The translations under genes and the position numbers were made by a program. This document shows, one piece after another, positions 14,984 through 16,050 of a DNA stretch of 64,000 nt (positions are counted from its first letter, which is position 1; every line of letters begins with the position of its first letter). Source of the DNA: Shigella phage KNP5; sequence record KX452698. One strand, given 5' to 3'. Below the pieces are notes generated by a model that saw only the letters and a list, made by a program, of their open reading frames with translations, was not told where the DNA came from and did no database searches.

Positions 14984-15844
14984 TTATATCGCCATCTTTC
15001 CTTTAATTGGCGGGTGAGATACATAGTTGTTAAGAACAAAATTATGCGGCTTTGCGAATTGACTCAACCAAAATACCTGCGATTCTGTGTCCCATTCATC
15101 AAATTCATCTGGAAATTTTAATTGTAATTCGCATAAATCCATAGGTTCACGACGCAAAATTTCTTTACATTGTTCTACGTGATTCATATAGATATGAGTA
15201 TTACCACCAGAAAATATCAAATCTCCTGGAATAAGATTACACATCTTAGCTACAATATGAACTAACGTAGCATATGATGCAATATTAAATGGAAGACCGA
15301 GGAAAACATCTACCGAACGTTGATACCACTGCAGATCCAAATAGCCATTACGCACATTAAACTGATAGAACATATGACAAGGTGGTAATGCCATTTGCTT
15401 AAGTTCTGCCGGATTCCATGCTGAAACAATTTGACGTCTATCATTTGGCAGTTTTTTAATACGTTCAACAACTTCTATAATTTGGTCTACGCCACCAAAA
15501 TCGCGCCACTGTTTTCCATAAATTGGACCAAGTTCACCGCTATGGTATCCTAAATCTTTTGCTTGATTTTCGTAATTTTCATCCCAGACTGTTTTGCCTT
15601 GAATTAATGAATCATGTTGAATTAATCGCAAATCATTGACATTTGTGCTTCCCGATAAAAACCATATTAGCTCAGCAATACAGGCTTTCCATGCTAATTT
15701 TTTAGTTGTTACCGCAGGAAAACCTTTAGTTAAATCCCAGCGTAATTTAGTACCAAACAAAGCAATTGTTCCTGTGCCTGTTCGGTCATCGGTTTCGTAA
15801 CCATTTTCCAGGATATCTTTAATTAAAAATTGGTATTGTTTCAT
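14984..15844 (-). CDS. td: thymidylate synthase
   Basis: Start trimmed to MKQYQ; TS motifs incl. catalytic PPCH; single uninterrupted ORF (no group I intron). Confidence 0.93.
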   Translation of the reverse strand: MKQYQFLIKDILENGYETDDRTGTGTIALFGTKLRWDLTKGFPAVTTKKLAWKACIAELIWFLSGSTNVNDLRLIQHDSLIQGKTVWDENYENQAKDLGYHSGELGPIYGKQWRDFGGVDQIIEVVERIKKLPNDRRQIVSAWNPAELKQMALPPCHMFYQFNVRNGYLDLQWYQRSVDVFLGLPFNIASYATLVHIVAKMCNLIPGDLIFSGGNTHIYMNHVEQCKEILRREPMDLCELQLKFPDEFDEWDTESQVFWLSQFAKPHNFVLNNYVSHPPIKGKMAI

Positions 15845-16050
15845 TAGTTCATCCAAGAATATGTAGAAGGATATTTAGCAAAGTTAGGCTTATATCCTAA
15901 TTTAACCATTTGTTTTGCTTTGCGAGTAAATCCTAAAGAACGCTCACCTTTAAGATATTGTTTTGGTGTCATAGGCCCTTGATGCATCTGCCGACAAATA
16001 AAAAGAGCCATAGCATTAGGAACATCCTTAACTTTTAATTTATTGCTCAT
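15844..16050 (-). CDS. hypothetical protein, 68 aa, wedged between frd and td
   Basis: ORF track; start overlaps frd stop and stop overlaps td start (translationally coupled arrangement). Confidence 0.45.

Follow-up and report, generated by a model that had tools for sequence, protein, structure and literature searches.

The dihydrofolate reductase gene frd and the thymidylate synthase gene td of bacteriophage T4 adjoin each other, and the ATGA overlap between them was reportedly described by Purohit and Mathews in 1984. In the window analysed here, which comprises the whole 64,000-nucleotide stretch of Shigella phage KNP5 (record KX452698), an ORF of 68 codons separates the same two genes. 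The locus therefore raises the question of whether this ORF is a gene at all and, if it is, how it came to lie at the junction, how it is expressed and what its product may do.

Structure of the frd-td junction

The features of the region and their coordinates are given in Table 1. The ATG of the ORF (16050-16048) overlaps the TGA of frd (16049-16047), and at the other end its stop codon, TAA (15846-15844), runs into the td ATG (15844-15842). Both the ORF list and a reading of the sequence thus bear out the original prediction, according to which the ORF was interposed between the two genes with overlaps at both ends. That prediction also held that frd and td are directly adjacent and overlapping in T4, and this agrees with the annotation of NC_000866, where td starts 4 nt ahead of the frd end and nothing lies between them. 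In the pairwise alignment, the junctions of the window and T4 differ by a clean 204-nt indel with AATGA at both borders. The frd 3' end and the start context are the same in the two phages, T4 being without the 204 nt, and the start of the ORF uses the sequence that precedes td in T4. The GGA triplet ahead of td sits in the Trp-Met codons of the ORF and may act as a Shine-Dalgarno sequence for td.

The window belongs to Tequatrovirus, and its frd is T4/T2-like right up to the start of the ORF. Over 701 nt around the ORF, Escherichia phage KNP1 shows 100% identity to the window, and the other records carrying the ORF show 95-99.6% (best 40 of 134). The td gene of T4 is split by a 1-kb intron with I-TevI, and that of the window is uninterrupted. 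In Salmonella phage GRNsp7, whose junction is 99.6% identical to that of the window, td is annotated as two pieces 248 nt apart, a gap that may represent an intron without an endonuclease ORF.

Table 1. Position, strand and basis of the features at and around the frd-td junction of the window.
Feature	Position	Strand	Basis
68-codon accessory gene, PHROG 9550 family	15844..16050, stop codon included	minus	ATG ORF list and profile match
ATGA overlap of frd stop (TGA) and ORF start (ATG)	16047..16050	minus	sequence reading
TAATG overlap of ORF stop (TAA) and td start (ATG)	15842..15846	minus	sequence reading
GGA, Shine-Dalgarno-like triplet, 8-10 nt before the td ATG	15852..15854	minus	sequence reading
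frd (dihydrofolate reductase), upstream neighbour	16047..16628	minus	
td (thymidylate synthase), intronless, downstream neighbour	14984..15844	minus	
First ~45 nt of td, right-hand remainder of the putatively exchanged tract	15800..15844	minus	multiple alignment and identity tables
81-aa ORF between frd.1 and frd, abutting the frd start	16628..16873	minus	
frd.1	16884..17126		
TTTACA-17-TACTAT promoter-like site with upstream TG, ahead of frd.1	17152..17180	minus	
frd.2 homologue	17181..17561	minus	
Strong hairpin resembling a terminator (GGGGACC...GGTCCCC with a T run after it), just downstream of gene 32	17941..17959	minus	

The ORF is a conserved gene under purifying selection

We compared the ORF with its homologues in Klebsiella phage Marfa, Enterobacter phage CIP9 and Serratia phage 4S. 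In these cross-genus comparisons, synonymous divergence was near saturation (pS 0.50-0.72) and dN/dS was only 0.13-0.19. The original prediction had considered that conservation analysis might expose the ORF as non-coding; these ratios indicate that it is coding. Across genera, pN was 0.13-0.30 for the ORF, 0.12-0.20 for td and 0.24-0.45 for frd, which gives the ORF an intermediate position, and its peptide is constrained at least as strongly as the Frd enzyme encoded upstream. We estimate that an open run of 68 codons would arise by chance at less than 1% per start in DNA of roughly 35% G+C. Since the ORF takes up the whole gap without remainder, has been kept in many genomes and is under purifying selection, it goes beyond what chance would produce, and it is a real, conserved small phage gene.

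Distribution and annotation of the family

When the peptide was searched against databases, its residues 1-68 aligned with all 68 positions of the phrog_9550 profile (E 1.3e-45). Exactly this 68-aa sequence was found on 332 public contigs, where it is named 'hypothetical' or 'uncharacterized protein, Tevenvirinae'. The members of PHROG 9550 / UniRef A0A449C5N9, which include Marfa YP_009850431 and an unannotated ORF of JS98, represent the same gene and differ from it in nothing. By tblastn, 236 phage records contain the ORF protein, 133 of them at an identity of at least 90%, and in about 133 phage records td follows directly on the ORF. The view that the ORF is out of the ordinary was thus not sustained: well over a hundred T-even genomes list it as a hypothetical protein, a separate PHROG family exists for it, and it is already catalogued as an ordinary hypothetical T-even gene, with no anomaly. 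Likewise, the expectation that T4 and its relatives would be without the ORF at this junction held for T4 itself and failed for the many relatives that carry it. A search of the literature for the junction, the PHROG identifier and the accession numbers returned nothing relevant.

The annotation of the ORF is uneven. The records of PYPS2T and vB_EcoM_P8 label it 'flagellar biosynthesis protein', those of IME339 and Klebsiella phage EI shorten it to 42 aa, and that of JS98 (EF469154) gives it no annotation. The label 'DUF4858', given to it in phage Shinka, was rejected, as a Pfam-A hmmscan of the 68-aa protein at E values of up to 10 gave no family.

Outside Tequatrovirus, the ORF immediately precedes td, its stop codon overlapping the td start, in Dhakavirus JS98, Marfavirus, Kanagawavirus CIP9 and Serratia phage 4S; the records of Marfa, CIP9 and 4S also annotate the TAATG arrangement. 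Relatives at a greater distance (73-108 aa, about 30-45% identity) were found in phAPEC8-like phages and in metagenomic phage contigs, where they sit among runs of small hypothetical ORFs, away from td. Three of these distant members (P0023, P0040 and P0041) and the phAPEC8 ORF match the same phrog_9550 profile. The family is small. Only 11 clusters at 50% identity emerged when 1.84 billion representatives were searched with the profile, and one of them, P0026 (1402 aa), was discarded as a spurious repeat protein; at 90% identity the family comprises about 40 clusters. All members of the family measure 66-108 aa, with no longer, multi-domain relatives. A search of 185,579 species genomes of bacteria and archaea yielded no relative, and the family is confined to virulent phages of enterobacteria. 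We found no paralogue of the ORF within the window and no conserved partner gene beside the distant homologues.

Three alleles occupy the junction

A comparison of the frd-td junction across T-even genomes revealed three alleles: empty in T4, occupied by an ORF of PHROG 1928 in T2, and occupied by the 68-aa ORF in the window. The T4 junction used as query was spanned by 382 records, nearly all in two pieces about 415 nt apart. The PHROG 1928 ORF alone is present in 356 records, neither ORF in about 26 (382 minus 356), and the 68-aa ORF alone in about 133 (134 in the junction search). None of the Tequatrovirus records examined carries both. The empty T4-type junction is therefore the rarest of the three Tequatrovirus alleles (about 26/515), about a quarter of the sequenced T4-like coliphages carry the 68-codon ORF, and T4 is unusual for being without it.

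The occupant of the T2-type junction (EcT2_00240 in T2, RB32ORF229c in RB51) is, like the 68-aa ORF, a small hypothetical ORF between frd and td in its 356 Tequatrovirus-like records. However, it is 115 aa long and unrelated in sequence, and in T2 non-coding spacers of 20 and 45 nt set it apart from frd and td, whereas the 68-aa ORF overlaps both genes. In T2 (L023:1282-1694) and RB51 (L025:1301-1648), the 45-nt spacer that follows this ORF contains a TATAAT-like sequence just before td, and in the RB51 record the ORF is flanked by a 9-bp repeat.

Dhakavirus is also polymorphic, JS98 having the 68-codon ORF and Bp7 and C6 a bare ATGA junction. Because T4, T2, Bp7 and C6 are all without it, the gene appears to be dispensable. 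In Marfa, CIP9 and 4S both ORFs are present, that of PHROG 1928 immediately upstream of the 68-aa gene. By a parsimony argument based on these three distant genomes, the ancestral T-even order was probably frd - PHROG 1928 ORF - PHROG 9550 ORF - td, which would have been followed by differential loss or replacement in Tequatrovirus. Since the bare ATGA junction occurs both in T4 and in the Dhakavirus phages Bp7 and C6, the empty state would either have arisen more than once or have been itself exchanged.

Variation extends to the other side of frd. The 81-aa ORF that abuts the frd start is 98.8% identical to an ORF of T2 (L023:455-700) and is absent from T4, where only a 72-nt spacer is found; the upstream side of frd is therefore a variable slot as well. 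Further upstream, the frd.2 homologue shares only 65% protein identity with T4 frd.2, and the products of frd.1, nrdA.1 and nrdA.2 beside it are 95-96% identical to those of T4. The low identity of frd.2 in comparison with its neighbours suggests another mosaic patch.

The ORF was probably acquired from a Dhakavirus-like phage

The ORF of the window and that of JS98 are 97.6% identical in DNA, whereas the flanking genes are only 75.7% (frd) and 76.9% (td) identical. The same contrast was observed at synonymous sites, with a pS of 0.10 for the ORF against 0.59 for frd and 0.675 for td. In every other pair of genera, the ORF and its flanks diverge at synonymous sites to a broadly similar degree (0.50-0.84 and 0.60-0.88, respectively). 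In a six-way alignment, the sequence to the left of the ORF is T4/T2-like in the window and Bp7/C6-like in JS98, in both cases up to the ATG. At the other end, the first ~45 nt of the window td are identical to those of Bp7, show one difference from JS98 and are unlike those of T4 and T2; the D6F and F12L changes lie within this tract. A second short Dhakavirus-like patch is located near td nt 150-170, after which the sequence is T4-like again. The breakpoints thus lie at the ATG of the ORF and ~45 nt into td, and the alignments indicate that the ORF and the first ~45 nt of td were recently exchanged by homologous recombination, for which the conserved frd and td flanks would have provided the route.

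As to the direction of this exchange, Bp7 does not carry the ORF and yet has the same td 5' end, so the tract appears to be native to Dhakavirus, and the cassette most likely came into the Tequatrovirus backbone from a Dhakavirus-like donor; this direction is deduced from the 45-nt tract and a handful of genomes.

The hyperplastic regions of T4-type phages contain ORFan cassettes whose shuffling depends on PeSL promoter/stem-loop motifs (Arbiol et al. 2010, PMC2839356); that description makes no mention of frd or td. The 68-aa ORF resembles these cassettes in being a small, non-essential ORF that is gained, lost and exchanged among related T4-type phages. In contrast to them, it has neither a promoter nor a stem-loop at either border, it lies enclosed by two core metabolic genes whose codons overlap its own, and its exchange appears to use frd and td homology instead of PeSL motifs. 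We found no flanking inverted repeats, transposon-like ends or target duplication beyond the 5-nt AATGA at the borders of the ORF. A PeSL-bounded mobile cassette was rejected as a description of the locus, given the absence of promoter and terminator sites, of junction structure and of inverted repeats.

Expression of the ORF within the frd-td unit

No promoter-like or terminator-like sites were found between 15800 and 16100, either inside the ORF or at its borders. The RNA at both junctions folds no better than shuffled sequence, with the start regions predicted to be unstructured, and an Rfam search gave a chance match only. Since promoter and terminator matches and junction RNA structure are all absent, the ORF is one cistron of the frd-td unit. 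The terminator-like hairpin downstream of gene 32 and the promoter-like site ahead of frd.1 probably delimit the transcription unit to which it belongs.

The ORF would then be expressed along with frd and td from their early/middle transcription unit. Its start would occupy the site used by td in T4, and its 3' end would supply td with a new start region, so that frd, the ORF and td are probably translated serially. The overlaps at both ends and the absence of internal promoter or terminator matches make translational coupling plausible; independent initiation is equally possible, because both start regions are predicted to be unstructured.

The product is a small basic protein with a confidently predicted fold

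The 68-residue protein, in which the N-terminal arm is rich in Lys and the C-terminal tail is aromatic, has a charge of +11 and a pI of 10.3. This character is shared by the family, which is strongly basic throughout (pI 9.75-10.6 and net charge +7 to +17 in 31 members). AlphaFold2 with an alignment of 31 sequences predicted helices at residues 13-24, 29-39 and 43-49, with the C-terminal tail packing back on them, at a pLDDT of 85.7. The prediction was confident only with these 31 diverse sequences; with 13 close sequences the pLDDT was only 54.6.

Among the relatives, R20, M48, G52 and P55 are invariant, and K4, K6, P11, K34, F41, L51 and Y53 are conserved in at least 90%. The alignments revealed common motifs, namely an N-terminal NK.KV..VP, L.R, KG..S.GF and M..LGYKP; the Gly between helices 2 and 3 and the LGYKP motif are conserved features as well. 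Profile searches with the 31 relatives against Pfam gave nothing meaningful and matched no endonuclease family, PADLOC gave no defence-system match, and the PDB sequence profiles returned a single chance match (E 0.9).

Discussion

Taken as a whole, these results make it reasonably probable that the ORF is a genuine, dispensable T-even accessory gene, exchanged between phages, with a product that may bind nucleic acid or protein. Binding is the most likely mode of action for a compact, basic protein of three predicted helices that matched no PDB sequence profile beyond chance and no Pfam enzyme family and has no multi-domain relatives; a basic charge by itself is insufficient as proof of nucleic-acid binding. 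We tentatively propose that the product binds nucleic acid, or an acidic protein of host or phage, and acts as an accessory factor of the host-takeover or counter-defence type. More doubtful is the stronger form of this proposal, namely that the protein has a small basic fold previously undescribed and is an exchangeable fitness factor, acting in counter-defence, in host shut-off or as an RNA-binding regulator.

The main alternative, a function together with the neighbouring genes, either as a small subunit or adaptor of Td, of Frd or of the T4 dNTP-synthesising complex, or as an RNA-binding regulator of td translation, seems improbable. In five lineages the ORF adjoins td on its upstream side and its stop codon overlaps the td start, it is constrained as td and frd are, and it is basic, as expected for an RNA binder. 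However, the frd-td regions of T4, T2, Bp7 and C6 are functional without it, and its homologues in phAPEC8-like phages and metagenomic contigs are located neither beside td nor beside any other nucleotide-metabolism gene. The locus might also be explained by the least probable of the readings considered here, a spacer or leader that tunes td expression and whose peptide sequence is irrelevant or is not translated. Such a leader would be compatible with the stop/start overlaps at both ends of the ORF and with the Shine-Dalgarno-like GGA for td within its 3' end, but strong purifying selection acts on the amino-acid sequence while synonymous divergence is near saturation, the predicted fold is confident, and homologues are present in unrelated phages away from td.

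It is very unlikely that the cassette spreads actively, by gene conversion after a trans-acting endonuclease has cut the empty junction, or that it is the remnant of the DNA-binding part of a homing endonuclease. Its presence is polymorphic in two genera, near-identical copies occur across genera between diverged flanks and with a short co-converted td tract, and T-even genomes contain many free-standing endonucleases (SegG, MobE and I-TevI in T4, for example). Nevertheless, this pattern is equally well explained if phages in mixed infections recombined in the ordinary way through their conserved frd and td flanks, and there are no terminal repeats beyond AATGA. Neither the ORF nor its relatives contain an endonuclease motif (GIY-YIG or HNH), a NUMOD/IENR-type DNA-binding domain or any other meaningful Pfam match, the hhalign probability is 0.1% against I-TevI and 1.6% against MobE, and a remnant would be difficult to reconcile with a family in which no member exceeds 108 aa. 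The lack of a Pfam match and of profile similarity to I-TevI or MobE supports the original prediction that the ORF is not a homing endonuclease.

For the accessory gene that we favour, the cross-genus exchange is clear, and each of its breakpoints can be placed within a few nucleotides. T4, in which frd and td overlap directly, displays the rarest allele and is a poor reference for this junction, where two core metabolic genes enclose a three-allele accessory hot spot. According to the predicted model, the product is a well-constrained and confidently folded small basic protein for which the PDB sequence profiles gave no fold relative, and functional screens of T-even accessory genes could include the ORF as a cheap and well-defined candidate. 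If the product does prove to be a fitness factor, selection would explain both its recent crossing between Dhakavirus and Tequatrovirus and its retention among three balanced alleles.
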